A DNA stretch of 64,000 bases from the NCBI GenBank assembly GCA_038234075.1, contig JBBSUV010000001.1:93925-157924 (forward strand). Direction: 5' to 3'. Positions 1,869-34,878 of this stretch are shown piece after piece. This DNA comes from Flavobacteriales bacterium (GTDB lineage Bacteria > Bacteroidota > Bacteroidia > Flavobacteriales_F > PHOS-HE28). Position numbers and translations under genes: made by a program. The notes under the pieces were generated by a model. That model was not told the DNA's origin and did no database searches. It worked only from the letters and a program-made list of their open reading frames with translations. The stretch's first letter is position 1. The number at the start of each line of letters is the position of its first letter.

Positions 1869-3011
1869 TCAAGCGATGGCTTTGTTATCTAACGTTCCCG
1901 ACCGGCCAAGGCGTATCACTTCCGCAGCAATGGCCTCCGCCGCATTCTCCATACCCATGCTCTCCATGGCTGCGCGAAGGCGTTCGCGCTCCTTGGCATC
2001 CCCCACCAGACGGAGGATCTCCGAGCCCAGCTTGTCAACGGCCTCCGCATCCTTCACCAGTACAGCAGCGCCGCGGTCGGATAGCGAGCGTGCATTGCTC
2101 GTCTGATGATCTTCCGCAGCGGTGGGCAGCGGTATGAGTATGGAGGGCAGTCGCGTAAGGCAGAGCTCGCTCACGCTGATGGCGCCGGCCCGTGCCACGG
2201 CCACATCGGTCACCGCATAGGCAAGGTCCATCCGCGAGATGAACTCATGCACATGCGCATCGGCATAGCCGGCGTCCTTCACAGCCTGAAGGGCCTGCGC
2301 ATGGAACGGGGTACCGGTCTGCCAGATCAGTTGCACGCCTTTATCGCGCAGTTGTACCAAAGCCGCGGCTATGCCGAGGTTGATACCACGCGCTCCCAAA
2401 CTGCCGCCGGTGACGAGCACTACCGGAGCGTCCTCACGCAGGCTGAAATGTTCCATTCCTCTCGGACGTTTGCCGGTGAGGCGCACCATGTCCTGCCGTA
2501 CCGGATTGCCGGTGAGCCTGATCTTCTCCTTCGGGAAATAGCGTTCCATGGCGGGATACGCCACACAGATGATGTTGGCCCCTTTGGCCAGCATGCGGTT
2601 GGTGGCGCCGGCATGGCTGTTCTGCTCCTGCACGAGCGTGGGAACCTTCGCGCGTTGAGCGGCAGCAAGCAAGGGGCCACTTGCATAGCCTCCAACACCG
2701 ACAGCCACGTCCGGCTTGAACGTGCGCACGATGTCCCGTGCCATCCACATGCTCTTGATCACGCGCCATGGCAACCCCACATTCTTCCAGAGGGCGCTCC
2801 GTTGGAAACCGCGGATAGGCAGGCCGGTGATCTCGTATCCCGCGGCGGGCACCTTCTCCATCTCCATTTTCCCGATGGCGCCCACGAAGAGGAAACGGGT
2901 GCCCGGCTCCCTTTCCTTCACAGCATTCGCGATGGCGATGGCCGGGAAGATGTGCCCGCCCGTGCCGCCTCCGCTGATCAATATGTTAAGCGGCCGCTGC
3001 GACATGATCAC
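1869..3011 (-). CDS. murG: UDP-N-acetylglucosamine--N-acetylmuramyl-(pentapeptide) pyrophosphoryl-undecaprenol N-acetylglucosamine transferase
   Basis: ISGGGTGGHIFPA motif, glycosyltransferase family 28, dcw context. Confidence 0.92.
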   Translation of the reverse strand: MIMSQRPLNILISGGGTGGHIFPAIAIANAVKEREPGTRFLFVGAIGKMEMEKVPAAGYEITGLPIRGFQRSALWKNVGLPWRVIKSMWMARDIVRTFKPDVAVGVGGYASGPLLAAAQRAKVPTLVQEQNSHAGATNRMLAKGANIICVAYPAMERYFPKEKIRLTGNPVRQDMVRLTGKRPRGMEHFSLREDAPVVLVTGGSLGARGINLGIAAALVQLRDKGVQLIWQTGTPFHAQALQAVKDAGYADAHVHEFISRMDLAYAVTDVAVARAGAISVSELCLTRLPSILIPLPTAAEDHQTSNARSLSDRGAAVLVKDAEAVDKLGSEILRLVGDAKERERLRAAMESMGMENAAEAIAAEVIRLGRSGTLDNKAIA

Positions 3012-4182
3012 TGGAACGGGTGGTACTTGGCTTGCCGTCCTCCGGCTGGTCGTAAACGCTGCGGCTCACGCTGAGCATGATGCCAAGGGATAGGCAGGTG
3101 AACCACATGCTGGTGCCGCCCATGCTCACGAGCGGCAGGGGCTGGCCGGTCACTGGAACAAGGTTCACGGCAACGGCCATGTTCACCAACGCCTGTAGGA
3201 CCAAGCTGAGAGCCAGACCTACTGCGACCAGTGCCCCGAATCGTTTTTCACAGCGGTTGGCGATGCGCATGGCACGCGACAGCAGGATGAGGTAGAGCAA
3301 CAGCAATCCCAAGCCACCGATCACCGAGCCGTACTCCTCGATGATGAAAGCGTAGATCATGTCGCTTTCCGGGTGCGGCATGAAGTTGCGGGACGTGCCG
3401 GTGCCCGGTCCGTTGGGAAGGAAGCCGCCATGGACGATGGCGATCTTGGCGTTGTTCACTTGATAGTTCGCATCGCGGTCGTCCCCGCCGTGGGTCGTAA
3501 GGCGTGATTGCCACGTCTGCAAGCGCGGCAACAGTTCCGGATTGGCCTTGGAAAGCAGCAACAGGATACCGAACGCACCGACAGCGATACCCGCGACGGA
3601 GAGCATGTGCCGGATGGGCACCTGACCGATGAACATCACGATCATGCAGGTACCGAAGAGCAATGCGGCGGTGGAGAAGTTGGCGGGCAGGATGAAGCCG
3701 CACACCGCTCCCACCGGAAGGATCAATTTCAGGATCACCTCGCGGAAGCTCCACGGCTCCTCCCTTTGGCGGCCCAACACCCGGGCGAGGTAAACGATGA
3801 TGACCACGCGTGCGAGGTCACTGGTCTGGAAGGTGATGCCCACGCCGGGGATCGCCAACCAGCGTGATGCTCCGTTGACGTTGGAGCCGATCAACAAGGT
3901 GAGCAAAAGCAAGGCGATGGTGGCGCCGAGGAGCACTTGGGAGAGTTTGGAATAGACCGTGTACTTCAGCTTGCTGGCGCCATACATGATGCCGCCGCCC
4001 GCGGCCAGCATCAGGCCATGCTTCACCAGGATCCGGAAGGTCCCTCCATCATGGCGCCACCCCATCCACGAGGAGGCGCTGTACACCGCGAGCAGGCTGG
4101 TCACGCCCAGGAGCAACGCCACCATCCAGATGGTGCGATCGCCCTTGAGGTGATCATTGAAGAGGTGATTTATCCGGTCCAT
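2986..4182 (-). CDS. ftsW: SEDS family cell division protein FtsW (peptidoglycan polymerase/lipid II flippase)
   Basis: Multi-TM SEDS/FtsW-RodA family sequence. Located between murD and murG. Confidence 0.88.
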   Translation of the reverse strand: MDRINHLFNDHLKGDRTIWMVALLLGVTSLLAVYSASSWMGWRHDGGTFRILVKHGLMLAAGGGIMYGASKLKYTVYSKLSQVLLGATIALLLLTLLIGSNVNGASRWLAIPGVGITFQTSDLARVVIIVYLARVLGRQREEPWSFREVILKLILPVGAVCGFILPANFSTAALLFGTCMIVMFIGQVPIRHMLSVAGIAVGAFGILLLLSKANPELLPRLQTWQSRLTTHGGDDRDANYQVNNAKIAIVHGGFLPNGPGTGTSRNFMPHPESDMIYAFIIEEYGSVIGGLGLLLLYLILLSRAMRIANRCEKRFGALVAVGLALSLVLQALVNMAVAVNLVPVTGQPLPLVSMGGTSMWFTCLSLGIMLSVSRSVYDQPEDGKPSTTRSSDHVAAAA

Positions 4183-4196: not shown

Positions 4197-4694
4197 TCAG
4201 AGGTCCATCACGGCCCGTTTGAATTCCGCGCCGCGTTCGGCGTGGTTCGCGGTGCCATTCCCGCTGGAGCAGGCCGGGCTGAATAGCACCTTCCCGCCAT
4301 CCGTCGCCAGTTCCCGCGCGGCAAAGACGGCCGTGCGGAGATCATCCGCATTGTACACGCATCCCATTTCCGCATCCATGGCGTCCACGCGGTCCTGTTC
4401 CACTTTTCCGAAGAACACAGTGCCGTCCACATGTTCCATCATGAACTCCTTCATCCGTTCATCGATGGCCGTGATCATCGAGGCGTCCACCACCCACACC
4501 AACGGGCGCCCGAGATCCATGATGGAGAGCAGGGAGGCATCAAGGAAAGTGCTCCTGCTGTCATCCACGTACTCCACTCCCGCCACGGTGGCAATGGTGC
4601 GAAGGCTGTGCGGTCCTTGGCGCACTTCGCTCAGGCCGTTGTCGCGCATAGCGAGCAGCAGCCGTGCCAATTCCGATGTTCTCGTGCCTTCCAT
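4197..4694 (-). CDS. MurD C-terminal domain-like ORF, a diverged duplicate of the murD 3' end (possibly a pseudogene remnant)
   Basis: The translation GVEYVDDSRSTFLD...GKVLFSPACSSGNGTANHAERGAEFKRAVMDL aligns colinearly with the last ~150 aa of the adjacent MurD ([14 protein letters not shown]...[31 protein letters not shown]). The first internal Met (MEGTRTS) was chosen as start so the ORF does not overlap murD. Confidence 0.4.
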   Translation of the reverse strand: MEGTRTSELARLLLAMRDNGLSEVRQGPHSLRTIATVAGVEYVDDSRSTFLDASLLSIMDLGRPLVWVVDASMITAIDERMKEFMMEHVDGTVFFGKVEQDRVDAMDAEMGCVYNADDLRTAVFAARELATDGGKVLFSPACSSGNGTANHAERGAEFKRAVMDL

Positions 4695-4722
4695 TCCTTG
4701 GTCCTTTCCGGATCGATCCGGC

Positions 4723-6057
4723 TTAAAGTCCGCGCACGGCGGTCTTGAAGCGGCGGCCGCGGTCCTCGTAGTTCTCGAACAGGTCGAAGCTGGCGCAAGC
4801 GGGGCTGAGCAGCACCACATCACCGGGCTCGCTGAGTTCGTAGCTCGTGTTCACGGCTTGATCGGCGGACAGGACATCCACCATGTTCGTCACGATGTCG
4901 CCGAAGGCCTTGTGGATCTTCTCATTGTCCACGCCGAGGCAAACGATGGCCTTCACCTTCTGGCGCACGAGGTCACGCAGCTCGTTATAGTCGTTCCCCT
5001 TGTCCTGGCCTCCCATCACCCAGATCACCGGCTTCTCCATGCTCTCGAGCGCATACCATGTGCTGTTCACGTTGGTGGCCTTGGAATCATTGATGAACTC
5101 CACGCCGTTCACCATGCCCACGCGCTCCAAGCGGTGCTCCACGTTCTGGAAATCGCCCAGCGCCTCGCGGACCACGTCCTTTCGCACTTCCAGTACGCGC
5201 GCTGCGATGCCCGCCGCCAGGGAGTTGTAGACATTGTGCTTGCCTTGCAGGGCCAGTTCCAAGATGCTCATGTTGAAGGTTGTTTGGTTCGTGGTGATGT
5301 GGATGTTGTCGTTCTGGAGATACCCGCCTTGCTCGACCGGCACACGGATGGAAAAGGGCCATTGACAGGCCTTCACGCTGTGGCGCCGCATTCCCTCGCG
5401 GGTCTGCGGGTCATCGGCGCAGTAGATGAAATGGTCGCCCGCATCCTGGTTCATGGTGATGCGGAACTTGCTGTCCACGTAGTTCTCCATCCGGTTGCCG
5501 TAGCGGTCCAGATGGTCCGGCGTGATGTTGGTGAGCACGGCGATATGCGGCTTGAGGGTGCGCGTGCCGTCGAGTTGGAAACTGCTCAGCTCCAATACAT
5601 ACATAGGATGGCTTTCCTTCGCTACCAGTCCGGCGAAGGAGGTGCCGACGTTCCCTGCCAATCCGACGTCCATGCCGGCTTTCGAAAGGATGTGGTGCAC
5701 GAGCAGCGTGGTGGTGGTCTTTCCATTGCTGCCCGTGATGCCGATGATGGGCGCATTCACGTAGCGCACCGCGAATTCGATCTCTCCGATCACCGGTACA
5801 CCTTTATCGCGGAGTGCGCGAATGATGGAGGCCGTTTCCGGGATGCCCGGGCTCTTCACCACCTCATCCGCTTCAAGCACCGTTTTCACGGTGTGGCCGC
5901 CTTGCTCGTAGGGAATGCCCGCCTGGTCCAAACGCTTGCTGAAATCCTCCGGGATCAGGCCCGCATCGCTCACGAACACGGGGATACCCTGCTTCTTCGC
6001 GAGGAGCGCCGCCCCCACTCCGCTTTCCTGTGCACCGAGCACCACCAGCTTCTTCAT
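4723..6057 (-). CDS. murD: UDP-N-acetylmuramoylalanine--D-glutamate ligase
   Basis: [13 protein letters not shown]-loop, Mur ligase family, dcw position between mraY and ftsW. Confidence 0.92.
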
Positions 6058-7301
6058 CGCAGCTTGAGGGTTACAAGGGTGAGAACCGCGAGCATCACGC
6101 CCACGATCAGGAAACGGGTGACGATCTTGCTCTCGTGGTAGCCGAGCTTCTGGAAATGGTGGTGCAGGGGCGCCATCTTGAAGATGCGTCGACCTTCACC
6201 GTAGCGTTTGCGCGTGTATTTGAACCAAGAGACCTGCATCACCACGCTGAGGTTCTCCACGAGGAAAACACCGCAGAGCACGGGTATCAAGAGCTCCTTC
6301 CGGACCAGGATGGCGAGCACGGCGATGACACCGCCCAAGGCCAGGCTCCCGGTATCGCCCATGAAGACCTGAGCCGGGTAGGCGTTGTACCAGAGGAAGC
6401 CGATGCATGCGCCCAGCAAGGCGCCGATGAACACCACCAGCTCGCCGATGCCGGGGATGTACATCACATCCAAGTACTGCGCGAAGACGATGTTGCCACC
6501 GATGTAAGTGAGCACGCCCAGTGTTAGTACGATGATCGCGCTGGTGCCCGCCGCAAGCCCATCGATGCCGTCGGTGATGTTCGCCCCATTGCTCACCGCC
6601 GTGATGATGAAGACCACCACCAGCACATAGAGGATCCACGTGTATTTGCGCGCCTCGCGGCCGAAGAGGCCCATCACTGATGAATAGTTCAGCTCGTTGC
6701 CTTTCACGAAGGGAATGGTCGTGTTCGGCTGGCGGCGGTCCAGCAGGTAATGGACGTTGCCGTTCTCCTCGGTGAAGGAGGTGACCTCGTTCGCCTCGAA
6801 CTGCTCCGCGATCACCTGCGGTACTTCCACCTTGGTGCGAACGGCGGGATGGAAATAGACGGTGAGTCCGATCACCAATCCGATACCGATCTGTCCGATG
6901 ACCTTCGAGGTACCGGCGAGCCCGCGCTTGTCCTTCTTGAAGACCTTGATGTAATCGTCGATGAAACCGATGGTACCGAGCCACACGGTGGTCAGCAACA
7001 TCAGCAGGATGTAGATGTTATCCAGACGTGCGAAGAGCAGCGCCGGTATGATCGTTGCGGCGATGATGATGAGACCGCCCATCGTCGGCGTGCCCTGCTT
7101 TTCCACTTGCCCTTCCAGTCCGAGGTCGCGCACGGTCTCGCCAACCTGCATGCGCTGAAGGAGACGCAGGATGCCCTTGCCGAACCACAGCGTGATCACC
7201 AAGGAGAGGATGAGCGCCATGCCCGCCCGGAAGCTGATGTACTCGAAAACGCCGCTGCCGGGGATCGCGGGACCGAGCCAATGGAACAGGTGGTACAGCA
7301 T
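6054..7301 (-). CDS. mraY: Phospho-N-acetylmuramoyl-pentapeptide-transferase
   Basis: Polytopic membrane protein with MraY family motifs (DDxxD, NxxNxxDGIDGL). Follows murE. Confidence 0.92.
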
Positions 7302-8764
7302 TATTTCCGAAGCATTTCGAGGGTTTCCTTCAGCACCTCCACATCATCGAAATGATGGCGTTCGCCGCGCACTTCCTGGTAGTTCTCGTGACCCTTGCCG
7401 GCCACCAGCACCACGTCGCCGGGCGCGGCCATGGCCACTGCCTGTCGGATCGCCTCGCGCCGGTCCGTGTTCACGAAGGCTCTTGCCAGATCGGTGGACA
7501 GCAGTCCTTTGCGCATCTCCTCGATGATCGCCATCGGCTCCTCGTTCCGCGGGTTGTCGCTAGTGAGGATGATGTTGCGGCTGTTGTTCACCGCGATGGC
7601 TGCCATCAACGGGCGCTTGGTCCGGTCACGGTCGCCGCCGCAGCCCACCACGGTGATCACGTGCTCCCTATCGCCGCAGACCGCGCCGATGGTGGAGAGG
7701 ACATTCTTCAGTGCGTCCGGCGTGTGCGCATAATCCACGATGCCGATCACGCCGGTGGAACCGCGCACCACTTGGAAGCGGCCCGGCGGCGGCTCCAGGT
7801 CGCTCAATGCCGTAAGCACGTCCACCGGATCAAGACCGAGAAGGATAGCGGAGGAATAGACCGCCAAGAGGTTGCTGGCATTGAACTCGCCGACAAGCCG
7901 CGAGAACATCTCATGCCCGTCGATGTTGAGCTGCAGGCCAGTGAGCTGGTTCTCGATGATCCGCGCCTTGTGGTCGGCCATGTTGCGCACGGCGAAGGAG
8001 CGTTTAATGGCTTTGCTGTTCTGCACCATCACCGCACTGTGGGAATCGTCAGCGTTCACCAAGGCGTAGGCGTCCGCAGGAAGCCCGTCGAAGAAGGCCT
8101 TCTTCGCATGGATGTAAGCATCGAAGGTGCCGTGGTAGTCGAGGTGGTCGTGGGTGATGTTGGTGAACACGCCGAGCACGAAGCGAAGGCCGGCGATGCG
8201 CTCCTGGACGATGGCATGGCTACTCACCTCCATGAAGCAATGCGTGATGCCCGCCTCCACCATCTGCGCCAGCAGCTCATTCAGCCGTAGCGGATCCGGT
8301 GTGGTGTGCGTGGCGGGAACAACGGTGGCTCCGATACGGATCTCCACGGTGGAGAGCAGCCCGCTCTTATGGCCGAGCTTCCGGAAGAGCTTATACAGCA
8401 GCGTGGCCACACTGGTCTTTCCATTGGTGCCGGTGACGCCGATCAACTTCAGCTTCTGGTCCGGATGCTCATAGTAGTTGCCCGCCATGATGGCCAGCGC
8501 ATGCCGCGAATCCGCGACGCGCACATAGGTCACCCCTTCCTTCAGGTGCTTAGGAAGGTCCTCGCAGATGATGGCCGCGGCACCCTTTTCAATGACCGTC
8601 CCGATGAATTGGTGGCCATCACTCGCGGTACCGCGGATGGCGACAAAGGCGGTGAACGGAACCACCTCGCGGCTGTCGAATGCGACATGTTCGATGGCGG
8701 TGTTGGTGTCACCCACCACCTGCTCCAGCTGCGTTCTATAGAGTATGTCCTTGAGCAGTTTCAT
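7301..8764 (-). CDS. murE: UDP-N-acetylmuramoyl-L-alanyl-D-glutamate--2,6-diaminopimelate ligase
   Basis: [11 protein letters not shown]-loop and Mur ligase domains. Located between ftsI and mraY. Confidence 0.9.
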
Positions 8765-10875
8765 GTTACGAGCTCTAGGGTCACGGTGCTTCCTTTCACG
8801 GACCGGGTGCCAGGGGCGGGCGATTGGCGCTTCACCATCCCGCTGCCGGTCAGCCGCACGCGCAGACCATGGTTCTCCAGGATGTACATGGCGTCGCGAA
8901 GGCCCATCCCGATCACATTCGGCATCATGCCCGTCTCGTCCGAAGGCACTCCGCGGGTCCCGATCACCACGGTGCTATCGGTGGCTTGGGTGCTGGCCCA
9001 TTCACCTTCGCCCTGCACCTCGACGGGGATCTTCAGCGCATCCATCACCAGCAACAGATCGGCGCGATCCCCACCGAAGGTCACGGGTGCTTTGTACACC
9101 GTGTCCACCTGTGCGGTGAGCGTCTGCATTTCCAGGCGGTTGCTGTAGATCTTGTCCGCGATCTCGGTGAACACCGGCCCGGCCACCACGTTGCCATAGA
9201 CGCCGCGCATGCTGGGCGAGCTCACCACCACGATGCAGGTGTACTTGGGCGCCTGTGCCGGGAAGTAGCCGACGAAGGAGGCCTGGTAGCTCACGCCGTT
9301 CACCTTGTAGCCCGCTTTCTCCGAGGCGATCTGCGCCGTACCGGTCTTGCCGGCGATCTTGAAATGCGCACTGCGCAGGTTGGTGGCGGTACCGGAGTCC
9401 ACCACGGCTTCCAGCAACTTGCGGAGCTTCTGCAAAGTGGCATCGGTGCAGATACGCTCGTTCAGCGTTACCGGCGGGAAACGTTCCAACACCTTGCCAT
9501 CGCGGGAGACGGCACGCACGAACTGCGGTTGCACCATCCGCCCGTCATTGGCGATGGCATTGTAGAAGGTGAGCATCCGCAGGGGCGTCTCGCTCACTTC
9601 ATAGCCGATGCTCATCCACGGCAGGCTGATGCCGCTCCATAGTTTTTTGTCCTCCGGTCCGCGAAGCACAGGCAGTCCTTCACCGGGGATGTGAAGGCCC
9701 AACGTCGATCCGAAGCCCAAGCGGCGCAGGCCCTCCACGAAGCGCGCCGGGTCCTTCTTGTATGCCGAATCAATGGCCTGCGAAATGCCGGTGTTGCTGC
9801 TCACCTCCAAGGCGCGCCCCAGCGTGATGAAGCCCCATCCTCCCTCGTGGGAGTCCTTCATGATGCGGTCGTAGAACCTGCGCTTGCCGCCCCGGGTATC
9901 CACGATCTGGTCCGGGGATGCCCGTCCGTCGTCCATGGCCACCATCAATGCCGCCGTCTTGAACGTGCTGCCCGGCTCGGTGCTGGCACCCACGGCGTAG
10001 TTGTAATCCTCGGCGTAGGTGCTGTCGCTCTGCAGCGTGAGGTTGCTGATGGCCTTGATGTAGCCGGTCGCCGTCTCCATCACCACCACACAACCGTGGT
10101 GTGCGCCGTTCTTCTTCAACTGCGCGGCGAGCGCGGCATCGGCCACGTCCTGCAGGTTCATGTCGATGGTGGTGTGGATGTCACTTCCCGGCACCGGGTC
10201 CTGCCCTTCACCGCCGTCCACAGGCATCCATACGCCACCGGTGAGGCGCCTTTCCAAGCGCTTGCCGGTAATACCCTGGAGCCATTTGGCATAACCAGCT
10301 TCCAGCCCGATCGCCGTGCTGTCCTTCAACAAATAACCCACTGTCCGCGAGGCCAAGCGGCCGAACGGACGGATCCGCACCATGTGCTTATCGGCGATGA
10401 AGCCGCTCTTATGGCGACCCAAACGGAGCAGCGGCAAACGACGGAGTTCCTGCAATTGCTCATGATCGCAGCGTCGCTTCAGCAGGAAATAACGTTCTCC
10501 ACGGGCGTGCGCATCGATCAGGTCCCTGCGGTACTCCTGCATGGTGCGGTCGCCGAGGAGGTTGGCGAGGCCCCAGCTGAGCGAGTCGATGTTGGCGGCG
10601 AAAAGCGCATTGGTAAGCCCGTCGGCTTGCATGTCCATGCGGAGCTCATATTCGGGAACGCTGGTGGCCAGCAGGCGATCATCATCACTGAAGATGTGCC
10701 CGCGCTCGCTTTGGACGCTGCGCATGGCGGTGGCCACATTCACGGCTTTGGCGCGCCACTTGTCGCCCTCGGCGATCTGGATGGTGAAAAGCTTCACCGC
10801 GATGGCGGCGCCGAACAACATCAGCACGGCATACACCAAGGTGATGCGCAGGCGAAGGACTTTATCCTCGTTCAT
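8761..10875 (-). CDS. ftsI: Penicillin-binding protein (FtsI/PBP3-like transpeptidase)
   Basis: N-terminal TM, PBP dimerisation domain, transpeptidase motifs (STFK, SSN, KTGT). Follows ftsL. Confidence 0.9.
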   Translation of the reverse strand: MNEDKVLRLRITLVYAVLMLFGAAIAVKLFTIQIAEGDKWRAKAVNVATAMRSVQSERGHIFSDDDRLLATSVPEYELRMDMQADGLTNALFAANIDSLSWGLANLLGDRTMQEYRRDLIDAHARGERYFLLKRRCDHEQLQELRRLPLLRLGRHKSGFIADKHMVRIRPFGRLASRTVGYLLKDSTAIGLEAGYAKWLQGITGKRLERRLTGGVWMPVDGGEGQDPVPGSDIHTTIDMNLQDVADAALAAQLKKNGAHHGCVVVMETATGYIKAISNLTLQSDSTYAEDYNYAVGASTEPGSTFKTAALMVAMDDGRASPDQIVDTRGGKRRFYDRIMKDSHEGGWGFITLGRALEVSSNTGISQAIDSAYKKDPARFVEGLRRLGFGSTLGLHIPGEGLPVLRGPEDKKLWSGISLPWMSIGYEVSETPLRMLTFYNAIANDGRMVQPQFVRAVSRDGKVLERFPPVTLNERICTDATLQKLRKLLEAVVDSGTATNLRSAHFKIAGKTGTAQIASEKAGYKVNGVSYQASFVGYFPAQAPKYTCIVVVSSPSMRGVYGNVVAGPVFTEIADKIYSNRLEMQTLTAQVDTVYKAPVTFGGDRADLLLVMDALKIPVEVQGEGEWASTQATDSTVVIGTRGVPSDETGMMPNVIGMGLRDAMYILENHGLRVRLTGSGMVKRQSPAPGTRSVKGSTVTLELVT

Positions 10876-11288
10876 GGCCGCGTGCGTTGTGCCTCCATTT
10901 CCTTCTTGTCCACCGTCAGGCGCAGTGGCGGTTCCCTGCTTTCGCGCAGTCCCATGCCTCCTATATCATCGGCCACTTGGCTTTGGCGTTCGGCTTTTTC
11001 CAAATGGCTGCGGATGGTGATGTACTCGGAGCGCATCTCCTTCAGCTCGCCGCTGGTGCGATCCAGGTCGCGCACGGTGCGCTCGGTCCAATAGCCGTAG
11101 CCGATGTAGAAGAGCATGAGCCCGGCGATGAACAGCAGGAAAGGCATGTTGGCGAGCACTTTCTCACGCGTGAGGAAACTGCCGTTCAGCACGTTCACCA
11201 GACCACGCGAGAAGGTGCGCCTGCCCTTGGCCTGCGGAGCCTTGGCCTTGGCCTTCTTCTCCGGTGCTATTTCCTTGACCTTATTCAC
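10872..11288 (-). CDS. ftsL: Cell division protein FtsL (Bacteroidota type)
   Basis: Small bitopic protein with one TM plus a coiled-coil region, located between rsmH and ftsI. Confidence 0.75.
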   Translation of the reverse strand: MNKVKEIAPEKKAKAKAPQAKGRRTFSRGLVNVLNGSFLTREKVLANMPFLLFIAGLMLFYIGYGYWTERTVRDLDRTSGELKEMRSEYITIRSHLEKAERQSQVADDIGGMGLRESREPPLRLTVDKKEMEAQRTRP

Positions 11289-12199
11289 TGCCGTACCGCT
11301 GTTCTGAGCCTCGCACTACGTGCACGCGGGTTGCTCATTTGTTCCTTTTCCGATGGCTGCACCGCCTTGCTCTGCGTGGGCTTGAAAGGCCGCTTGCTGT
11401 TGCCGAACACATCCTTGTCCTCCTTGCCGTCCAGGCTTCCGGTCTTCATCCAGTTCTTCACCAAGCGGTCCTCCAAGCTGTGATAGCTCATCACCACCAA
11501 GCGCCCTCCCGGCTTGATCACTTCAGCGGTCTCCTTCAGCAGGCGCTCGAGCGAGCCGAGCTCATCGTTCACCGCGATGCGCAGCGCTTGGAAGACCTGC
11601 GCGAGAAAGCCATGCTCTTCACCACGGCGCGCCATCGGCTTCAGCACCTCCACCAATTGGCCGGTGGTCTCGATGCGTTCGCTGCCGCGTGCATACACGA
11701 TCTGGCGTGCCACTTTATGCGCTTGCTCCACTTCGCCGTATGTGCGGAGAAGCTCTTCAAGCGCGCGCTCATCGAGGCTGTTCAGCAGGTCCGCGGCAGT
11801 GCGCTTGTCCTGCTGGTTCATGCGCATATCCAATGGCGCGTTGAAGCGGAAGCTGAAACCGCGTTCAGCGGTATCGAACTGGTGGCTGCTCACCCCGAGG
11901 TCAGCCAACAGGCCATCCACCGGCAGTTTCTCGAGATAGCGCAGGTGGTTCCAGATCCAGCGATAGTCCGAAGGGACCAGGGTGAAGCGCGGATCCTTGG
12001 GGGCGTTCGTGCGCGCATCGGCATCGCGGTCGAAGGCGACCAAGGAGCCTTTCGGCCCGAGCTGTTCCAATATGGCGCGGCTATGGCCACCACCACCGAA
12101 GGTCACATCCACATAGATGCCGTCCGGGCGGATGGCCAGTGCTTCGATGCACTCGTGAAGAAGTACCGGCTCATGATATGTGTCCTGGGGCCTCGTCAT
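11285..12199 (-). CDS. rsmH: 16S rRNA (cytosine1402-N4)-methyltransferase
   Basis: HEPVLL motif, SAM-dependent MTase fold, second gene of the dcw cluster. Confidence 0.92.
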   Translation of the reverse strand: MTRPQDTYHEPVLLHECIEALAIRPDGIYVDVTFGGGGHSRAILEQLGPKGSLVAFDRDADARTNAPKDPRFTLVPSDYRWIWNHLRYLEKLPVDGLLADLGVSSHQFDTAERGFSFRFNAPLDMRMNQQDKRTAADLLNSLDERALEELLRTYGEVEQAHKVARQIVYARGSERIETTGQLVEVLKPMARRGEEHGFLAQVFQALRIAVNDELGSLERLLKETAEVIKPGGRLVVMSYHSLEDRLVKNWMKTGSLDGKEDKDVFGNSKRPFKPTQSKAVQPSEKEQMSNPRARSARLRTAVRQ

Positions 12200-12647
12200 T
12201 GCCCAGGCTGCCCATTACGTCCTCCGCCAACTTGGACAGATCCACTTTCTCTCCACGCATCTGCGCGTAGCCGGCCTTGCTCCACACTTCCACCCGATCG
12301 CCCAGCCCCACAAGCTTCAGCTCCTTGCCCAGCTTCGGGTCGTCCATCAAAGCCTTTGGCAAAAGCAAACGCCCACTGCTGTCCAATTCCATGTGAGTGG
12401 CACCGGCCGTGAAGCGCCGTATGAAATCCATGTTCTTCTCCACGAAGCGGTTCAACCGGCCCAGCATACGATTGGTGCTGTCCCACACCTGCTGCGGATA
12501 GAGCACCAAACAAGGGCGGAACACGTCGCGATTGACCACGAAGCCCTGCGAGAGCGAATCCGCCAGCTGCTTCTTCAGCCCGCTGGGCAGTACCAGACGC
12601 CCCTTGGCGTCCAGCCGCACATCGTATTCCCCGAGCAGGTTTAGCAT
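12171..12647 (-). CDS. mraZ: Transcriptional regulator MraZ
   Basis: Tandem MraZ domains (DxxGRL motifs). First gene of the dcw cluster. Confidence 0.9.
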   Translation of the reverse strand: MLNLLGEYDVRLDAKGRLVLPSGLKKQLADSLSQGFVVNRDVFRPCLVLYPQQVWDSTNRMLGRLNRFVEKNMDFIRRFTAGATHMELDSSGRLLLPKALMDDPKLGKELKLVGLGDRVEVWSKAGYAQMRGEKVDLSKLAEDVMGSLGNDEAPGHIS

Positions 12648-14468: not shown

Positions 14469-14623
14469 AGTTGTCCGTTCTTAGTTGTCCGTTGTCATGC
14501 GGGCGCAGAGTCCTTTATTCTTGGCTCGTGCATTTGGCCCCATGGGCCACGGAGCTGCGAAGCCGAAACCTGCGACGGATCGGCCAAGGGCCCTGACAAC
14601 GGACAACTAAGAACGGACAACTA
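14469..14623. repeat. 155-bp element bounded by 29-bp perfect inverted repeats (MITE-like or large hairpin)
   Basis: agttgtccgttcttagttgtccgttgtca at 14469-14497 is the exact reverse complement of 14595-14623. Each arm is two tandem AGTTGTCCGTT units. The 97-bp GC-rich core contains the cccatggg palindrome. The element lies between convergent engB and gldC. Confidence 0.7.
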
Positions 14624-14953
14624 CTTATTCTTCAACTCCGGCAACATGTGCTCGGCGAAGTAGGCCGCGAAATCACGCATCTGCGCCGCCATCTTGTCCT
14701 CGTTGGTGGCCCGCTCGAAGGTGTCGGCCAGTGTCAGGATGTTCTGGTGGAAGAAGGCCTTCATTTCGTCGGTGGTCATATCCTTCGTCCACAGGTCGAT
14801 GCGCATGGTGTTGAGCTCCTCGGCATCCCAAAAGCTGAGCAGCATGGCCTTGCTCACGCCTTGGTTATCCCCGTCCTCGGCCTTCCATTCGATATTCTCG
14901 GGAACGTGGTTCTCATCCATGTGGAGCCGGATGGTGATGTCGGTTTCTTTCAT
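14621..14953 (-). CDS. gldC: Gliding motility protein GldC
   Basis: About 110 aa with LWTKDMTTDEM and ADTFERAT motifs recalled from Flavobacterium GldC. Sits immediately downstream of gldB as in the known gldBC operon. The start was taken at MKETDITIRL. Confidence 0.65.
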   Translation of the reverse strand: MKETDITIRLHMDENHVPENIEWKAEDGDNQGVSKAMLLSFWDAEELNTMRIDLWTKDMTTDEMKAFFHQNILTLADTFERATNEDKMAAQMRDFAAYFAEHMLPELKNK

Positions 14954-15065
14954 GTTCAATGCAGTGAATGGTGGCTGGTGACCGGTGATTGGTGGCGGCT
15001 GGTAATAGGTGGTAAGTGAGAGTGCCGTGCATATCCGATCACCTATCACTAGTCGCCTATCACCA
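14954..15065. repeat. Imperfect inverted repeat of GGTGAT(A/T)GG units in the gldB-gldC spacer
   Basis: ggtgattggtggcggctggtaataggtgg ... cacctatcactagtcgcctatcaccactacc. The motif is related to repeats at 34790-34835. Confidence 0.4.
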
Positions 15066-16073
15066 CTACCTGGGTTTATAGGTTTTCAAGATCGCTTGCG
15101 GGTCGTGCATCGCGAATATCTCTGCAAAGGTGGCCTTCGGGTTGGCATTCATATAGCTCGTCACCATCCGGTAGCCGATCCATTCGCCGATGTGGCCGGG
15201 GCTTTCGCGCGGGAAGCCCGGCGTGAACGGGCCGTCGTTCATGAAGCGGTCGATCTCCTTGGGATCCTTGCTGTACAGCAGTTCCTTGCTCACGATCTCC
15301 CGCCACACATTGAATTCGTTGTCCTCGCACCACTTCAACTGCTTGGGCGTGAACGCGAACTTCAATGTCGCATCGGTCCCCGGTAACAAGGCATCCAACA
15401 GGGCCATCACTTTTCCGATGACCACAAAATTCGTCAGCAGGTTCTCATCGCGGACATCCCGTGTGTAGTGGACCTGCAGCCATCCCTTCACTACGCTGGG
15501 GACCAGCATTTCCGGACGCATGCGCTCCTTGCGGTACTGCGGGAACACATCCGGCGACAGGTACTTCACCACGGGACTGTCCTTGCCGACGAACCATTCC
15601 ACACCAAAGCCCAGTACGCTGTCCGTAGGCAGTACGCCGTAATTGAAGCCGGAGTTGAACGCAATGATGCGCGGCGTGAGACTATCCGGGAAATACTCCT
15701 TCAGGTGCCCGAACGCCTCATTGAACTCGGCCTCCTGCTTGTTCATATCTCCCAGTATGCTATCCGCCGAACGCTGGACTTTGCTCCAGTCGGGATCATG
15801 CACAAAGCGGGAAAGGGCCATCGGCAAACGCGGATCATTGTACGGCGCCGCTTGAAGGACACGTTCCACGTACAGCTTGTAGAACTCACCGTATTCAGCG
15901 TACAGTCGCAGGTTAAAGTTCCCTGCCGTGTCATCGACCGTTCGGAACAGGTCCTGGTCCAACCGCTCGATCTTGAGGTGCACCTGAGCCGACCGGGGAA
16001 TGTCCTCATGGCTCTGGCCTCCTCCACAAGAGAGAAGGGACAGGAGAACAAAACACCCCATGGTGCTGTTCAT
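15066..16073 (-). CDS. gldB: Gliding motility lipoprotein GldB
   Basis: Lipoprotein signal (LLSLLSCGGG). C-terminal GWIGYRMVTSYMNAN...KTYKPR matches the remembered F. johnsoniae GldB C-terminus. Adjacent to gldC. Confidence 0.75.
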   Translation of the reverse strand: MNSTMGCFVLLSLLSCGGGQSHEDIPRSAQVHLKIERLDQDLFRTVDDTAGNFNLRLYAEYGEFYKLYVERVLQAAPYNDPRLPMALSRFVHDPDWSKVQRSADSILGDMNKQEAEFNEAFGHLKEYFPDSLTPRIIAFNSGFNYGVLPTDSVLGFGVEWFVGKDSPVVKYLSPDVFPQYRKERMRPEMLVPSVVKGWLQVHYTRDVRDENLLTNFVVIGKVMALLDALLPGTDATLKFAFTPKQLKWCEDNEFNVWREIVSKELLYSKDPKEIDRFMNDGPFTPGFPRESPGHIGEWIGYRMVTSYMNANPKATFAEIFAMHDPQAILKTYKPR

Positions 16074-16090
16074 GTAACTCACCTCGATCT

Positions 16091-16098
16091 TACCTTTG
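16091..16098 (+). promoter_or_regulatory. Candidate Bacteroidota sigmaA -7 element (TAccTTTG)
   Basis: TACCTTTG matches the TAnnTTTG consensus, 27 bp upstream of the ATG of the beta-barrel OMP gene. Confidence 0.3.
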
Positions 16099-16125
16099 TC
16101 CATCATTCAACCAGCCCGCAAACCT

Positions 16126-25306: not shown

Positions 25307-26434
25307 ATGAAGCCCATCCAGATGGTCGATCTTGTCGGCCAATACGAAAAGATCAAACCCGAAGTGGATGCCGCTTTGTTGGATGTGATCGCGGGTGCGG
25401 CATTCATCAATGGCCCGGAAGTGAAGGCCTTCGAAAAGGAACTGGCAGCCTACCTTGGAGTGAAGCATGTGATCCCTTGCGGCAATGGTACAGACGCCCT
25501 ACAAGTGGCCATGATGGCCTTGGGGCTGAAGCCGGGCGATGAGGTGATCACCGCCTCGTTCACCTTCGTGGCCACGGTGGAAGTGCTGGCGCTGCTCGGC
25601 CTCGTGCCCGTCTTTGCCGATGTGTTCCCCGGAACCTTCAACATGGACCCCGCCGATGTGGCGCGCAAAGTGACCCCGAAGACCAAGGCCATCGTGCCCG
25701 TGCATCTCTTCGGTCAATCCGCTGACATGGACGCGATGATGGCGATCGCCAGGGAATACAAGTTGCACGTGGTGGAGGACGCCTGCCAGTCCATCGGCTC
25801 GGACCACAGCGGTGCGAACGGCAAACGCAAGTCCGGCGCCATCGGCGACATCGGCGTCACCAGCTTCTTCCCCAGCAAGAACCTCGGCTGCTACGGGGAC
25901 GGTGGCGCACTCTTCACGAACGATGATGAACTGGCGCACAAGATCCGCCGCGTATGCAACCACGGCAGCGATGAACGCTACTACCATGAAGTGGTGGGCG
26001 TGAATAGCCGATTGGATTCATTGCAAGCGGCCGTGTTGCGGATCAAACTGCGGCACCTCAACGAATACGCCAAGGCGCGCAGTGTTGCCGCTGCAGCCTA
26101 TGACAATGCATTCTCCGGGATCGAAGGCGTCAGCGTTCCTGAACGCAGTTCCTTCAGTACCCACGTCTTTCACCAATACACCCTTCGGATCGCCAAGGGT
26201 CGGCGGGATGAGCTGAAAAAGCACCTGGAAGCGGCTGGCGTGCCGGCGATGGTCTACTATCCCGTGCCGTGCCATCTACAGAACGCGTACAAGAGCGAGC
26301 GCTTCCCTGCCGGATCACTGCCGGTGACGGAATCACTGATCACGGAAGTGATCTCACTCCCCATGAGCACCGAACTGGACAACGATCAACTCACCCACAT
26401 CACCACAGCGGTGAAGAGCTTCTTCAACGCATAA
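25307..26434 (+). CDS. DegT/DnrJ/EryC1/StrS family PLP-dependent sugar aminotransferase
   Basis: Fold-type I aminotransferase of the WecE/ArnB class (GNGTDAL motif, SFF.SKNL lysine region). Confidence 0.85.
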   Translation: MKPIQMVDLVGQYEKIKPEVDAALLDVIAGAAFINGPEVKAFEKELAAYLGVKHVIPCGNGTDALQVAMMALGLKPGDEVITASFTFVATVEVLALLGLVPVFADVFPGTFNMDPADVARKVTPKTKAIVPVHLFGQSADMDAMMAIAREYKLHVVEDACQSIGSDHSGANGKRKSGAIGDIGVTSFFPSKNLGCYGDGGALFTNDDELAHKIRRVCNHGSDERYYHEVVGVNSRLDSLQAAVLRIKLRHLNEYAKARSVAAAAYDNAFSGIEGVSVPERSSFSTHVFHQYTLRIAKGRRDELKKHLEAAGVPAMVYYPVPCHLQNAYKSERFPAGSLPVTESLITEVISLPMSTELDNDQLTHITTAVKSFFNA

Positions 26435-26495
26435 CAAGATCCCCAGCGAGAGGATGAGCGCGCCGATGTAAGGGCGCGAGATCTCGCGCCCCAAC

Positions 26496-27827
26496 ATGAA
26501 CATAGCAGTAGTAGGAACTGGATACGTAGGCCTGGTAACGGGCACTTGCTTCGCCGAGACCGGCAACAACGTGATATGCGTCGACATCGACAAGGAGAAG
26601 GTGCAGAAGCTGAAGGACGGGAAGGTCCCGATCTATGAGCCCCATCTGGACGTGCTGTTCGAGCGCAACATCCGCCAAGGCCGCTTGGTCTTCACCACGG
26701 ATCTGAAGGAGGCTGTCGACAAAGCGCAGATCATCTTCTTGGCCCTTCCCACGCCTCCCGGCGAGGACGGCAGCGCCGACCTGAAGTATGTGCTGGGCGT
26801 GGCAGATGACCTGGGCAAGATCATCACCGACTACAAGGTGATCGTGGACAAGAGCACGGTTCCCGTAGGCACTGCCGAAAAGGTGCGTGCAGCCGTGGCC
26901 AAGCATGCCAAGGTCCCCTTCGATGTGGTGAGCAACCCGGAATTCCTGCGGGAAGGTTTCGCAGTGGACGACTTCCTGAAACCGGACCGGGTGGTGGTGG
27001 GCACCAGCAGCGCGCGTGCACAGAAGGTGATGGAGGACCTCTACAAGCCTTTCGTGCGGCAGGGCAACCCCATCATCTTCATGGATGAGCGCAGCGCCGA
27101 ACTCACGAAGTACGCGGCCAACGCCTTCCTCGCGGCCAAGATCACCTTCATGAACGAGATCGCGAACTTCTGCGAGGCTGTGGGCGCGGACGTGGACAAG
27201 GTGCGCATCGGCATCGGAAGCGACAGCCGGATCGGCAAGCGCTTCCTCTTCCCCGGGATCGGCTACGGCGGCTCTTGCTTCCCCAAGGACGTACAGGCTT
27301 TGGCCAAGAGCGGGAAGGACGCCGGCTATCAGTTCCAGATCATCGATAGCGTGATGAAGGTGAACGAGCGCCAGAAGACCACGCTCACGGACAAGGTGAA
27401 GGCGCACTACGGTGAGGACCTGCGCGGAAAGCATTTCGCGCTTTGGGGCCTGGCTTTCAAGCCGGACACGGACGATATCCGCGAAGCTCCGGCGCTTTAC
27501 ATGATCGATGCGCTCCTGGAGGCAGGCGCCACGGTCACCACCTTCGACCCCGAGGCCATGGACAACGTCCGGAAGCTGATCGGTGACAAGGTGACTTATG
27601 CCAATGACGAATACGCGGCGCTTGAGGGTGCCGATGCGCTGATCATCGCTACGGAATGGGCGCTGTTCCGCACGCCCGACATGGCCCGCGTGGAAAAAGC
27701 CCTGAAGGAAAAGATCATCTTCGATGGCCGCAATCTCTACGACCTCGACGAGATGAAGGATCTCGGCTACCACTACGTGAGCGTAGGGCGGCAGCCGGTG
27801 AACGCACCCATCAAAATGAAAGCCTGA
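26496..27827 (+). CDS. ugd: UDP-glucose 6-dehydrogenase
   Basis: [12 protein letters not shown] Rossmann N-terminus, catalytic GGSCFPKD motif. Confidence 0.9.
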
Positions 27828-27828
27828 A

Positions 27829-28920
27829 ATGGTGAAGAAGAGCACCGCAAAACCTGCAAAGGTCAAAGCATCGCCACAGAGTACTAAGCCTGCGGCAAAG
27901 CGGGGACGGATGAGCGTGGTGAAGCCTGCCGAGAAAGAGCGCGTGCTGATCACCGGGGCTGCGGGTTTTCTGGGCTCCCATCTGTGCGACCGGTTCTTGA
28001 AGGAGGGGTATCACGTGATCGCGATGGACAACCTGATCACCGGCCGCCTGAAGAACATCGAGCACCTGTTCAAGCGGAGCGATTTCGAATTCTACCATCA
28101 CGACGTTTCCAAGTTCGTGCATGTGCCCGGCAAGCTCAAGTACATCATGCACTTCGCCTCGCCCGCAAGCCCGATCGACTACCTGAAGATCCCCATCCAG
28201 ACGCTGAAAGTGAGTTCCTTGGGCACACACAATCTGCTCGGACTTGCCCTGCAGAAAAAGGCGCGCATCCTGGTGGCCAGCACCAGCGAGGTATACGGAG
28301 ACCCACAGGTGCATCCACAGACAGAGAGCTATTGGGGCCACGTGAACACCGTGGGTCCACGCGGCGTGTACGACGAGGCCAAGCGTTTCCAGGAGGCCAT
28401 CACCATGGCCTATCACACCTATCATGGATTGGAGACGCGCATCGTGCGGATCTTCAACACCTACGGCCCACGCATGCGCCTCAACGACGGCCGGGTGCTA
28501 CCGGCATTCATCGGTCAAGCGCTTCGCGGTGAAGACCTCACCATCTTCGGCAAGGGCAACCAAACGCGCAGCTTCTGCTATGTGAGCGACCTGATCGAAG
28601 GCATCTACCGTCTGCTGAAGAGCGATTGCTCAGACCCCGTGAACATCGGCAACCCGGCGGAGATCACCATCAAGCAGTTCGCCCAGGAGATCGTGAAGCT
28701 GACCGGAACCAAGCAGAAGCTGGTCTACAAGCCGCTTCCACAGGACGATCCCATGCAGCGCCAGCCGGACATCACCTTGGCCAAGAAGCTGCTGAAGTGG
28801 CAACCGAAGATCTCCCGCGCCGAAGGCTTGAAGATCACCTACGCTTATTTCAAGGGCCTTTCAGCTGCGGAACTCCACGAGAAGGACCACAATTCCTTCG
28901 AGGGATACGTGCGAAAGTGA
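27829..28920 (+). CDS. UDP-glucuronate decarboxylase (UDP-xylose synthase, SDR family) with Lys/Ala/Pro-rich N-terminal extension
   Basis: [12 protein letters not shown] Rossmann motif, YxxxK motif, UXS-like conservation. Translationally coupled to ugd (2-bp gap). Confidence 0.8.
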
Positions 28921-29040
28921 GGGTTTAGTTGATAGGTGTTGCAGCGTTGTCTTCGCTCGTGACTGATCTGGCGAGTGTGGACCATTCCTCACGGGTGAAA
29001 GGCATCCGCGCCGAATTTGAGGATTGCTTAACTTTACCTG

Positions 29041-29496
29041 ATGCAGACGTTCGATATACGGTTCGACCCGGCATTGGCCACTTCCGCGTTAATGCGCTCG
29101 CTCGAAGGTGTCCATCTGCAACGTGGTGACCATGTATGCGTATCGACTTTGTACAAACCTTCCCAAGCGGAACTTTACACATTACTCCTTGTCATTGCCA
29201 ACTCGATCGCCAAGGGCATGGATGCGCGGAAGGAAAGAGACGGCGCCCGGGCAAAAGGCGAGTATTTGCTGAAGGACTTACTCTCCCAATATGGCAACGC
29301 CGAAGATCTCGAACGCGGCCTTGAACGCGAATATGGCGTGGAGATCACCGTTGTGACAAGGGATACGGAAGATTCGGATTGGCTGGCCCTGTCGTCAAAA
29401 GGGGCAGAAGCGGCCTATGGCGAGAACGAACCGGACTATTCCAATACTGAAGTCCGTGAACCCAACCCGTACTACCGCAAGCACGCCAGCGAATGA
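29041..29496 (+). CDS. Hypothetical protein, putative non-canonical antitoxin partner of the downstream PemK/MazF toxin
   Basis: ORF overlaps the toxin start (ATGA) in a local GC dip (about 52%, visual estimate). No recognisable antitoxin fold. The true start is uncertain (internal Mets at aa 18 and 60). Confidence 0.35.
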   Translation: MQTFDIRFDPALATSALMRSLEGVHLQRGDHVCVSTLYKPSQAELYTLLLVIANSIAKGMDARKERDGARAKGEYLLKDLLSQYGNAEDLERGLEREYGVEITVVTRDTEDSDWLALSSKGAEAAYGENEPDYSNTEVREPNPYYRKHASE

Positions 29497-29837
29497 TCGC
29501 AGGGAGCATCATTCTGCTGGACTTCGTTCAATCGAACGGGGTCGTGAAGAAGCGGCCAGCACTTGTGGTTGCCATATTACCGCGTTTCAGCGACCTCCTG
29601 CTAGCCGGTATCAGCACACAACTGCATCAAGCGATCCCACAGGTGGATATCGAGCTTCTCGACGGGCAACCTGGATTCAGGGACTCAGGCTTGAAACGAT
29701 CCAGCATTGTGAGATTGACACTATTGAGCCGGATCGAGCGCAAGGACCCAAGCATCTTTGGAACCATTGGCACCCTTGACCCTGCGCTACTGATCCGGGC
29801 GAAACGCAATTTAGCCGACCTGATCCTTCGAGCGTAG
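29493..29837 (+). CDS. PemK/MazF family toxin (type II TA endoribonuclease)
   Basis: KKRPALVVA ... GISTQL ... SIVRLT ... IGTLDPALL pattern matches PemK_toxin family members. Confidence 0.65.
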   Translation: MIAGSIILLDFVQSNGVVKKRPALVVAILPRFSDLLLAGISTQLHQAIPQVDIELLDGQPGFRDSGLKRSSIVRLTLLSRIERKDPSIFGTIGTLDPALLIRAKRNLADLILRA

Positions 29838-29851
29838 GGTACGGATCCGAA

Positions 29852-30790
29852 GTGACCGCTACGACCAATTTAAGCCCTGAACAAATCCTTATCAAAGTGA
29901 AGATGGACCACCCATCTCCGGCAGTGATCCGCGTTTGTGGCGTGCCCGAACCGTTCAATCTGCCGTGGCGGCTAGGCGTTGAGAGTGGCGCATTCCTTCT
30001 TGAAGGCATCGACCTGCAATGGCGGGATGTGCCCGAAGGCACGGGAGCCATGTGCCAGTTGTTGCAGAACGGAGCCACGGACCTGGCCGTGCTGGTGACC
30101 GAAGGTGCGGTGCGCGATGTGCTGGTCAGCAGCGGAAATTCCGTCGTGGCCACCTTGGTGGATTCACCGCTCCGATGGGGAGTACATGTGGGTTCAGGCA
30201 CCGATCTACAAACCCCGGCCGATCTGGTGGGCGTGCCTTTCGCTATCAGCCGCTTCAACAGTGGAAGCCACCTGATGGCCATGGTCTATGCAAAGCGCTT
30301 AGGCTGGACACCGAAGGAAAAGGACTTCATCGTGGTACACGACCTGGACGGCGCAGTGGCTCTGCTGAAAAGCCCGAGACCGGCAGTGTTCCTGTGGGAG
30401 CAGGCCATGACCGCCGCATTCGTGGAAGCTGGCGCACTGCGCATGGTGGACGTTATGGAAGCGTCATGGCCCGCCTTCACGGTGGTGGCCCGGAAGGAAT
30501 TCCATCACCGCCATCCGCAGGAAGTGGAGCGGGTGTTACGCATCGTCCGCGAACAGGCCAAGGCATTCACGGCCGGTCAGGGAGCTGCCGAGCAGGTGAC
30601 CACGCGTTATGGCCTGCCAGCAACCGAGGCCAGGCGTTGGTTTGCGGCCGTTCGCTGGAACACGGATGGCCGGATCGACCTTCCGTCCTTATCCCTTGCC
30701 GCACGGACGTTGGCCGAAGCGGGAATGCTGACGGGGGCACCACCGGAGGATCTCTGGGGGGATCGGCTCAAGGGAAGCGCCAATTCTTAA
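29852..30790 (+). CDS. NMT1/THI5-like (periplasmic-binding-protein fold) substrate-binding protein, cytoplasmic
   Basis: SsuA/NMT1-like layout with no signal peptide. Weak recollection-based assignment. Confidence 0.35.
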   Translation: MTATTNLSPEQILIKVKMDHPSPAVIRVCGVPEPFNLPWRLGVESGAFLLEGIDLQWRDVPEGTGAMCQLLQNGATDLAVLVTEGAVRDVLVSSGNSVVATLVDSPLRWGVHVGSGTDLQTPADLVGVPFAISRFNSGSHLMAMVYAKRLGWTPKEKDFIVVHDLDGAVALLKSPRPAVFLWEQAMTAAFVEAGALRMVDVMEASWPAFTVVARKEFHHRHPQEVERVLRIVREQAKAFTAGQGAAEQVTTRYGLPATEARRWFAAVRWNTDGRIDLPSLSLAARTLAEAGMLTGAPPEDLWGDRLKGSANS

Positions 30791-30812
30791 AGCCCATACC
30801 GGCACGGGACGA

Positions 30813-34698: not shown

Positions 34699-34737
34699 GT
34701 AGTTTCACAACAGAGGCAGAGGGAGCACAGAGGCGGA

Positions 34738-34835: not shown

Positions 34836-34878
34836 AGCCTTCGTACCCTTCGTGCCTCTGTGGTGAACCAACGATAAC

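Follow-up and report, generated by a model that had tools for sequence, protein, structure and literature searches.

A stand-alone paralogue of the MurD C-terminal domain encoded between murD and ftsW in the division and cell wall cluster of Flavobacteriales

Why does the division and cell wall (dcw) cluster, which is among the most conserved and best-studied of bacterial gene clusters and encodes Mur ligases that are antibiotic targets, carry between murD and ftsW an additional gene that resembles the last domain of MurD? The question is raised by a stretch of 64,000 nucleotides from a Flavobacteriales bacterium (contig JBBSUV010000001.1), referred to here as the window, within which all positions are numbered. 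An open reading frame (ORF), here called X, lies between murD and ftsW on its minus strand. The current analysis has revealed that gene X is a new, further conserved gene of the dcw cluster built from the C-terminal domain (C-domain) of MurD alone. It is a real and widespread addition to the canonical operon. A preliminary description of the locus, made from its sequence, knew of no such gene in dcw clusters, and our full-text searches of the open-access literature agree with it: they turned up no account of a MurD C-domain encoded as a separate gene or of a gene inserted between murD and ftsW in Bacteroidota.

Homology, fold and start site of gene X

The ORF called mechanically at 4197-4823 on the minus strand exists as the preliminary description had given it and comprises 208 residues when read from GTG 4823. 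Its upstream part (4695..4823), taken in that description for a long out-of-frame N-terminal extension over murD, lies outside the protein. GTG 4823 is simply the first in-frame GTG after a stop codon; of the segment in question, 4723-4823 belongs to the 3' end of murD, read in another frame, and 4695-4722 forms the 28-nt spacer between murD and X. Homologues elsewhere all begin at the position of ATG 4694, with the sequence 'ME(G/N)(T/S)(R/K)TSE' ('MEGTRTSE...' in the window copy), and have lengths of 157-183 residues; gene X is therefore assigned to 4197..4694 on the minus strand, with TGA at 4197-4199 and a product of 165 residues in place of the 166 initially counted. Its start codon lies 28 nt past the murD stop, a distance that varies from 2 to 100 nt in relatives, and its stop codon lies 14 nt ahead of the ftsW start. 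The G+C content at third codon positions (GC3) of the 165-residue frame is 0.76, compared with 0.72-0.84 in the neighbouring genes.

The adjacent murD (4723..6057, minus strand) is full length, encodes 444 residues with canonical motifs, is matched by the Pfam families MurD_N, Mur_ligase_M and Mur_ligase_C, and passes the NCBIfam equivalog TIGR01087 with 411 bits. The similarity of X to the C-terminal end of this MurD, first seen by eye, is borne out by BLASTP: residues 8-163 of a 163-residue query lacking the first two residues of X, that is its C-terminal 156 residues, align colinearly with MurD 286-444 (28% identity, 51% positives, E=2e-16). The sole NCBIfam match of X is likewise TIGR01087, over model positions 298-439 of 441 (E=4.6e-21), with 75.4 bits against a curated cut-off of 211.95 bits. 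A search of the PDB with the family profile has returned MurD chains only, aligned to E. coli residues 292-435. The AlphaFold2 model of X, again built without the first two residues, has a mean predicted local distance difference test score (pLDDT) of 85.7 and a predicted template modelling score (pTM) of 0.82, and the top 33 Foldseek matches of this model in the PDB are all MurD, the best being C-domains from P. aeruginosa, A. baumannii, T. maritima and E. coli. Since the Pfam scan of the window copy gives no match even at E<=1, X has been assigned to its family by NCBIfam, BLASTP, the PDB profile search and its fold; many homologues of X carry a precomputed match to PF02875 (Mur_ligase_C), with which the fold agrees.

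X does not have the three-domain architecture of MurD. The MurD, PDB and TIGR01087 alignments cover only the C-domain and the linker helix that precedes it, and the 28 nt to the murD stop leave no upstream room for further domains. Judged by this architecture X cannot ligate by itself, since the UDP-binding N domain and the P-loop central domain are absent.

The automatic names of the family are partly wrong, as its members are neither MurD nor cyanophycin synthetase, and no characterisation of any of them was found. They appear in databases as 'hypothetical protein', 'glutamate ligase domain-containing protein', 'cyanophycin synthetase' and, at JGI, 'UDP-N-acetylmuramoylalanine--D-glutamate ligase', and they are also open to confusion with the 182-residue 'MurD' fragments described below.

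Conservation, selection and origin

Comparison with related genomes and estimation of the ratio of nonsynonymous to synonymous substitution rates (dN/dS) had been proposed in the preliminary description as the way to tell a conserved gene from a lineage-specific one. A protein search has identified 217 homologues of X, of which the 120 listed are 132-183 residues long and range in identity from 94% down to about 42%. In a scan of one genome per GTDB species, at least 173 genomes encode a relative, all of them labelled as uncultured Flavobacteriales or Bacteroidota assemblies. The order murE-mraY-murD-X-ftsW-murG-murC is found in 82 of the 82 loci inspected, with an insertion between X and ftsW in one of them. 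In these loci murD is complete in 80 and X is intact, with 158-178 residues, in 79; the other three look like frameshifted assemblies. The intact loci span 40-94% X identity, and an alignment of 30 diverse members has 18 invariant and 28 nearly invariant columns. X is a conserved dcw gene in hundreds of environmental Flavobacteriales species and consists solely of the mobile substrate-binding domain of MurD.

The dN/dS values, calculated by the method of Nei and Gojobori, are 0.159, 0.148 and 0.199 for X in the three closest pairs of genomes, and 0.053, 0.064 and 0.060 for murD in the same pairs. Over all pairs, where dS is often saturated, they range over 0.13-0.48 for X and 0.05-0.22 for murD. 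X is free of the frame disruption, variable length and dN/dS near 1 that mark a pseudogene. Its sequence suggests instead a pseudoenzyme, that is, a homologue of an enzyme that lacks catalytic parts and is under purifying selection.

Within one genome X is 25-44% identical to the C-domain of MurD, which indicates that the duplication of the 3' part of murD is old. An origin as a partial copy, as proposed earlier and with the murD lineage as donor, is supported by homology, and the event is ancient, not recent. The distances among X proteins track those among MurD proteins (r=0.42), which is consistent with vertical descent.

A full HMMER scan of 1.8 billion representative proteins has retrieved 27 representatives at E<=1e-30; beyond these the matches grade without a break into full-length MurD. 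Among the short matches a second group of proteins of 162-190 residues, here called group 1b, has been identified. At E<=1e-10 a profile of this group matches 758 clusters; among the 120 best, all are short except for one entry of 312 and one of 201 residues. In all three contexts inspected, namely a Salibacteraceae assembly and two circular contigs (4.4 and 5.9 Mb), the place between murD and ftsW is likewise taken by a member of group 1b. A neighbour-joining tree gives group X a bootstrap of 0.85 and puts X and 1b on one side and all full-length MurD on the other, this deep split being without bootstrap support. Because the deep nodes are unsupported, a single origin of X and 1b rests on their shared derived residues and shared position; the derived residues are better evidence for it than the tree.

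Motifs of gene X and its possible role

X resembles the C-domain of MurD in its fold, its colinear sequence, its HxxE, NDSxxT, SPAC and ERG...F motifs and its preceding linker helix. It is unlike MurD in that it stands alone as a protein of 165 residues, has lost K348 with the GGxDKG loop, has mostly Arg at K319, Phe at N322, Gly at L416 and Pro at A414, and carries a new helix, 'LRTAVFxARE'. The column statistics cover 141 full-length MurD, 89 group X and 58 group 1b sequences and follow E. coli MurD numbering. Apart from five residues, roles are those generally known from the complexes of E. coli MurD. The five are D182, K348, A414 and L416, which lie near D-Glu, and K319, which lies near ADP (PMC8788868).

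The motifs NDSKAT and SPACAS...ERG are present in X with substitutions. The MurD motif 'xHR(L/M)E' has its counterpart in 'PHSLR' (4599..4613, minus strand, as are all the motifs below), in which the His remains but Ser stands in place of Arg; over group X the R302 position is R in 50% and S in 35%. 'NDSKAT' (E. coli D317-T321) corresponds to 'DDSRST' (4548..4565), in which Asp, Ser and Thr are kept and Lys has become Arg, the K319 position being R in 61% and K in 24% of the group. The segment LFSPACSSGNGTANHAERG (4230..4286) is the counterpart of E. coli 408-426 and retains SPAC, Ser415 and RG; its central loop has been remodelled in group X to a conserved 'PSGNGFANY'. The His of HRxE, D317, S318, T321 (97%), S415 (92%), R425, G426 and the final Phe are kept in the group, as is an aromatic residue at 422 (Y 78%), and N322 is changed to F, L416 to G and D417 to N.

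The fourth loop has degenerated. 'DASMITAID' (4461..4487) replaces the 'GGxDKGxDY' of MurD with the loss of the Lys equivalent to K348, which is K in 91% of full-length MurD and has no conserved replacement in group X or 1b. The alignment of 'VVDASMITAID' with the MurD loop and the C-terminus '...LFSPACSS...RGAEFKRAVMDL' are as previously quoted. The accompanying claim that the central ATP/UDP-sugar binding residues have diverged is imprecise. The loop that has diverged, GGxDKG, belongs to the C-domain, its Lys lies near D-Glu (K348; PMC8788868), and the UDP-binding and P-loop domains are absent from X, not diverged.

Several features are derived. The Leu of 'LLSP' (L in 92% of full-length MurD) is Phe, giving 'LFSP', in 86% of group 1b and 100% of group X, and this change is common to all the stand-alone groups. 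N322 (N in 97% of full-length MurD) is D in 82% of group 1b and F in 89% of group X. A414 (A in 85%) is S in 58% and P in 34% of group 1b and P in 95% of group X. Group X has also gained a conserved loop, CPSGNGFANYEERG, which is of low confidence in the model (its residues 142-146 have low pLDDT), and the almost invariant helix 'LRTAVFxARE' ('LRTAVFAARE' in the window, 4311..4340), a signature of the group (R 98%, T 86%, F 98%, E 98%) that is absent from MurD and could provide a partner-binding surface. The adjacent MurD has every canonical motif, including 'GGQDKGNDY' with its Lys, and is tightly constrained, so X does not compensate for a defective MurD domain.

The reading that we favour, with moderate confidence, is that X is a functional, vertically inherited, non-catalytic paralogue of the MurD C-domain that docks on the core of a cytoplasmic Mur enzyme or binds its ligands. 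On this reading X goes back to an ancient partial duplication of murD, has become established at its present position in a large and mostly uncultured clade of Flavobacteriales, and would be transcribed together with the other dcw genes. In MurD four loops face the nucleotide and the D-Glu/product site. Three of these are still under selection in X, NDS[R/K]xT and SPAC-PS...NYEERG among them, which suggests that this face is still used. Through its former active-site face X may dock on the catalytic core of one of the cytoplasmic Mur enzymes, or may hold UDP-MurNAc-dipeptide or a nucleotide. One candidate partner is the N and central module of MurD, a site at which X would compete with, or exchange for, the mobile C-domain of MurD itself; another is MurE, the next enzyme. 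Either way X would tune or scaffold peptidoglycan precursor synthesis at the step from MurD to MurE. The gene would offer a handle on two open questions, namely whether the cytoplasmic Mur enzymes form a physical complex and what use is made in vivo of the opening and closing of the C-domain.

A mirror-tree test over 43 loci, in which partial correlations control for the mean distance of the other genes, has given values with X of 0.54 for MurE, 0.42 for MurG, 0.28 for MurD N and central domains, 0.20 for MurC, -0.06 for MraY, -0.14 for FtsW and -0.27 for the MurD C-domain. These values are a weak hint as to partners and serve as a lead only, because the pairs are non-independent and composition may confound them.

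Several points weigh against the favoured reading. Shared composition and saturation confound the mirror-tree signal, to which no valid p-value can be attached. The rate of evolution of X is about 1.7 times that of the MurD C-domain and its dN/dS 2-3 times that of murD; this would fit a binding role but also a marginal one. The window copy has 'GNGTANH' in a key loop where the group consensus is 'GNGFANY', and the node joining group X to 1b is weakly supported by bootstrap. An inhibitor or competitor made at a fixed ratio from its target's own operon is, moreover, not an obvious design.

Among the other explanations, X might be a scaffold or adaptor that leaves the active site untouched and links the soluble Mur enzymes to the membrane steps (MraY, MurG, FtsW) or to each other, a possibility that we regard as unlikely. 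The fixed position beside ftsW, the group's own surface helix and the covariation of rates with MurG and MurE point towards it. Against it, covariation with FtsW or MraY is missing, and the conservation of the loops that face the active site is left unexplained. A precedent for a Mur-ligase homologue as a structural subunit is found among the fold matches in PDB 8qma chain O, which we take to be the MurE-like subunit of the plastid RNA polymerase (PEP) complex. That subunit is similar to X in being a Mur-ligase-derived protein kept for a structural or regulatory role and not for ligation; it differs in being eukaryotic, plastid and MurE-derived, and is unrelated to peptidoglycan synthesis or to a dcw operon.

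A role of X as a small-ligand sensor or carrier is rather improbable. The amino-acid site of Mur ligases is formed between domains, so that an isolated C-domain should bind its ligand weakly, and the Lys at K348 is lost. Such a role would fit the covariation of X with MurE and the retention of T321, S415 and the aromatic residue at 422, which in MurD touch the D-Glu part of the product according to general knowledge of the enzyme and PMC8788868.

It is very unlikely that X acts in trans as a catalytic subunit that replaces the MurD C-domain on the N and central domains of MurD, or on another Mur-type core, and forms a hybrid ligase with another amino-acid specificity. X could only take its place by displacing a domain that is covalently tethered in the adjacent, complete MurD. 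No conserved residue replaces K348 in group X or 1b, neither another Mur-ligase paralogue nor a Mur-ligase core without C-domain has been found in the whole window, and we know of no report of an unusual position-2 peptidoglycan residue in these lineages. The idea draws on the retention of D317, S318, T321, S415, R425 and G426, on the mobility of the MurD C-domain as a rigid body (PMC4816537), and on the changed positions K319, K348, A414 and L416 being those that set substrate choice in MurD and MurD2 (PMC8788868), with A414 changed to Pro just as in MurD2.

MurD2 belongs to the alternative pathway MurD2/MurL of Xanthomonas (Feng et al. 2017; review, PMC8788868), in which MurL is an ATP-dependent epimerase. 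This is the closest theme in the literature, although its enzymes are full-length and come from other phyla. Both MurD2 and X are MurD paralogues with altered K348, A414 and L416 positions and the Ala-to-Pro change at 414. MurD2, which is encoded next to its partner gene, is a full-length active ligase adding L-Glu, whereas X is a single domain. The marks of the pathway are Arg at K348, Glu at D182 and an adjoining MurL, whereas the adjacent MurD here has the canonical Lys. The pathway is listed for some Gamma- and Alphaproteobacteria and rare actinobacteria, with Bacteroidetes unmentioned (PMC8788868). A place for X in this pathway has been rejected on the grounds of its single domain, its NCBIfam match to murD only, the Lys of the adjacent MurD and the listed distribution, which is without Bacteroidota.

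That X is a functionless pseudogene, the decaying remnant of a partial tandem duplication of murD, is hardly credible. For such decay speak the position of a partial copy beside its parent, the degeneration of one catalytic loop, a rate of evolution above that of murD and the lack of a Pfam match for the window copy. Against this stand the intact ORF of 79 of the 82 loci, the dN/dS of 0.15-0.2 in close pairs, the 18 invariant columns and the coding-type GC3. Of the two fates considered in the preliminary description, decay is contradicted by an intact, syntenic gene under purifying selection in more than 80 independent assemblies, and retention as a stand-alone C-domain protein is what the same conservation, synteny and selection bear out. 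An assembly artefact, that is a collapsed or chimeric duplicate of the murD 3' end, for which nothing more than the adjacency of two homologous sequences speaks, has practically no probability, as X is only 28% identical in protein sequence to the adjacent domain and the same arrangement recurs in short-read and long-read assemblies of many independent samples, including the circular contigs of 4.4 and 5.9 Mb.

Other stand-alone C-domains and the surroundings of gene X

A different arrangement, mraY followed by a 182-residue MurD C-domain gene and ftsW, has been observed in four divergent Bacteroidota lineages (L083-L085, L088, L092-L093 and L094) with a GC content of 36-53%. The gene lies at 6001-6549 in loci L083-L085 and L094, at 5001-5549 in L088 and at 10001-10549 in L092-L093, with 1-29 nt between the mraY stop and its start. 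In L083-85 and L088, tblastn over the ±5-6 kb around the gene gave no match to the N or central domain of MurD, and in L092-94 no such domain was called within ±6-10 kb; a full murD must be presumed to lie elsewhere in these genomes. The gene has exactly 182 codons in six of six representatives and lacks the K348 Lys, with R, L, T, N, S or D in its place. Between L083 and L094 its dN is 0.167 (ftsI 0.163, murE 0.188) and its dN/dS about 0.07. The 182-residue proteins group with full-length MurD in the tree, which suggests a truncation independent of X. The retention of this gene alone in the dcw cluster under strong selection shows that the MurD C-domain by itself is worth keeping in the operon.

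A broader and rather speculative proposal, to which we give little credence, is that the MurD C-domain also has a non-catalytic task, the organisation of peptidoglycan precursor synthesis, which Bacteroidota have off-loaded to a separate gene. This may have happened twice, once as the extra gene after murD in the window and its sister group, and once as the 182-residue remnant alone in the murD slot of other lineages. In the strongest version of this proposal X would swap in on a Mur-ligase core in trans and alter the action of the enzyme.

Most 182-residue 'proteins' in databases are of another kind; they dominate searches and have been excluded here. They are exemplified by the apparently split MurD (253 and 182 residues) of locus L091 (9210-10549), which was rejected as a candidate: it results from a frameshift in a run of ten A, after which the gene caller restarts at a conserved internal Met within 'FNMSIxxLALxGxHN'.

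A 180-residue ORF (P0153) with canonical MurD C-domain motifs, including GGVDKG, has been identified at 2995-3537 of locus L087 among small ORFs of a phage-like contig. Three of its neighbours match PHROG families (two of function unknown and one glycosyltransferase) and one carries Pfam Phage_phiTE_072. P0153 clusters with Flavobacteriales MurD in the tree and may have been captured as a fragment from a host or may act as a MurD decoy carried by the phage. A general link with phages finds no support: the matches in a phage genome collection look like host DNA and a viral structure library gave one match only.

The dcw cluster of the window is of the Bacteroidota type and is encoded on the minus strand throughout. 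Upstream of murD it comprises mraZ (12171-12647), rsmH (11285-12199), ftsL of the FtsL_2 type (10872-11288), ftsI (8761-10875), murE (7301-8764) and mraY (6054-7301). Downstream of X it continues with ftsW (2986..4182), which encodes 398 residues and matches Pfam FTSW_RODA_SPOVE (E=2.6e-66), murG (1869-3011) and murC (488-1867). Two apparent fusions have been observed in related loci, MurG-MurC as one product of 840 residues in L001 (7720-10242; a nanopore-based assembly by its record name) and X-FtsW as one ORF of 569 residues in L036 (3950-5659; a long-read assembly, as its record name suggests). Single-base indel errors are their likely cause, as murG and murC abut in the window.

No promoter-like site was found, nor any terminator-like site separating murD, X and ftsW. 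The murD-X spacer contains, directly past the murD stop (4708-4721), a perfect 14-nt palindrome, CCGGATCGATCCGG; it is not conserved, the closest relative (L003) having only an imperfect version and more distant relatives none. An Rfam scan of the window found no family, and no glutamate racemase is encoded among 20 further ORFs scanned, which are most of the ORFs at 10.9-37.9 kb. The window also encodes the gliding-motility genes gldC and gldB (14621-16106) and a set of nucleotide-sugar and polysaccharide genes (25307-36683) that includes a DegT aminotransferase, two UDP-glucose/GDP-mannose dehydrogenases, epimerases/dehydratases and CpsB/CapC, a gene content that fits a Bacteroidota chromosome.

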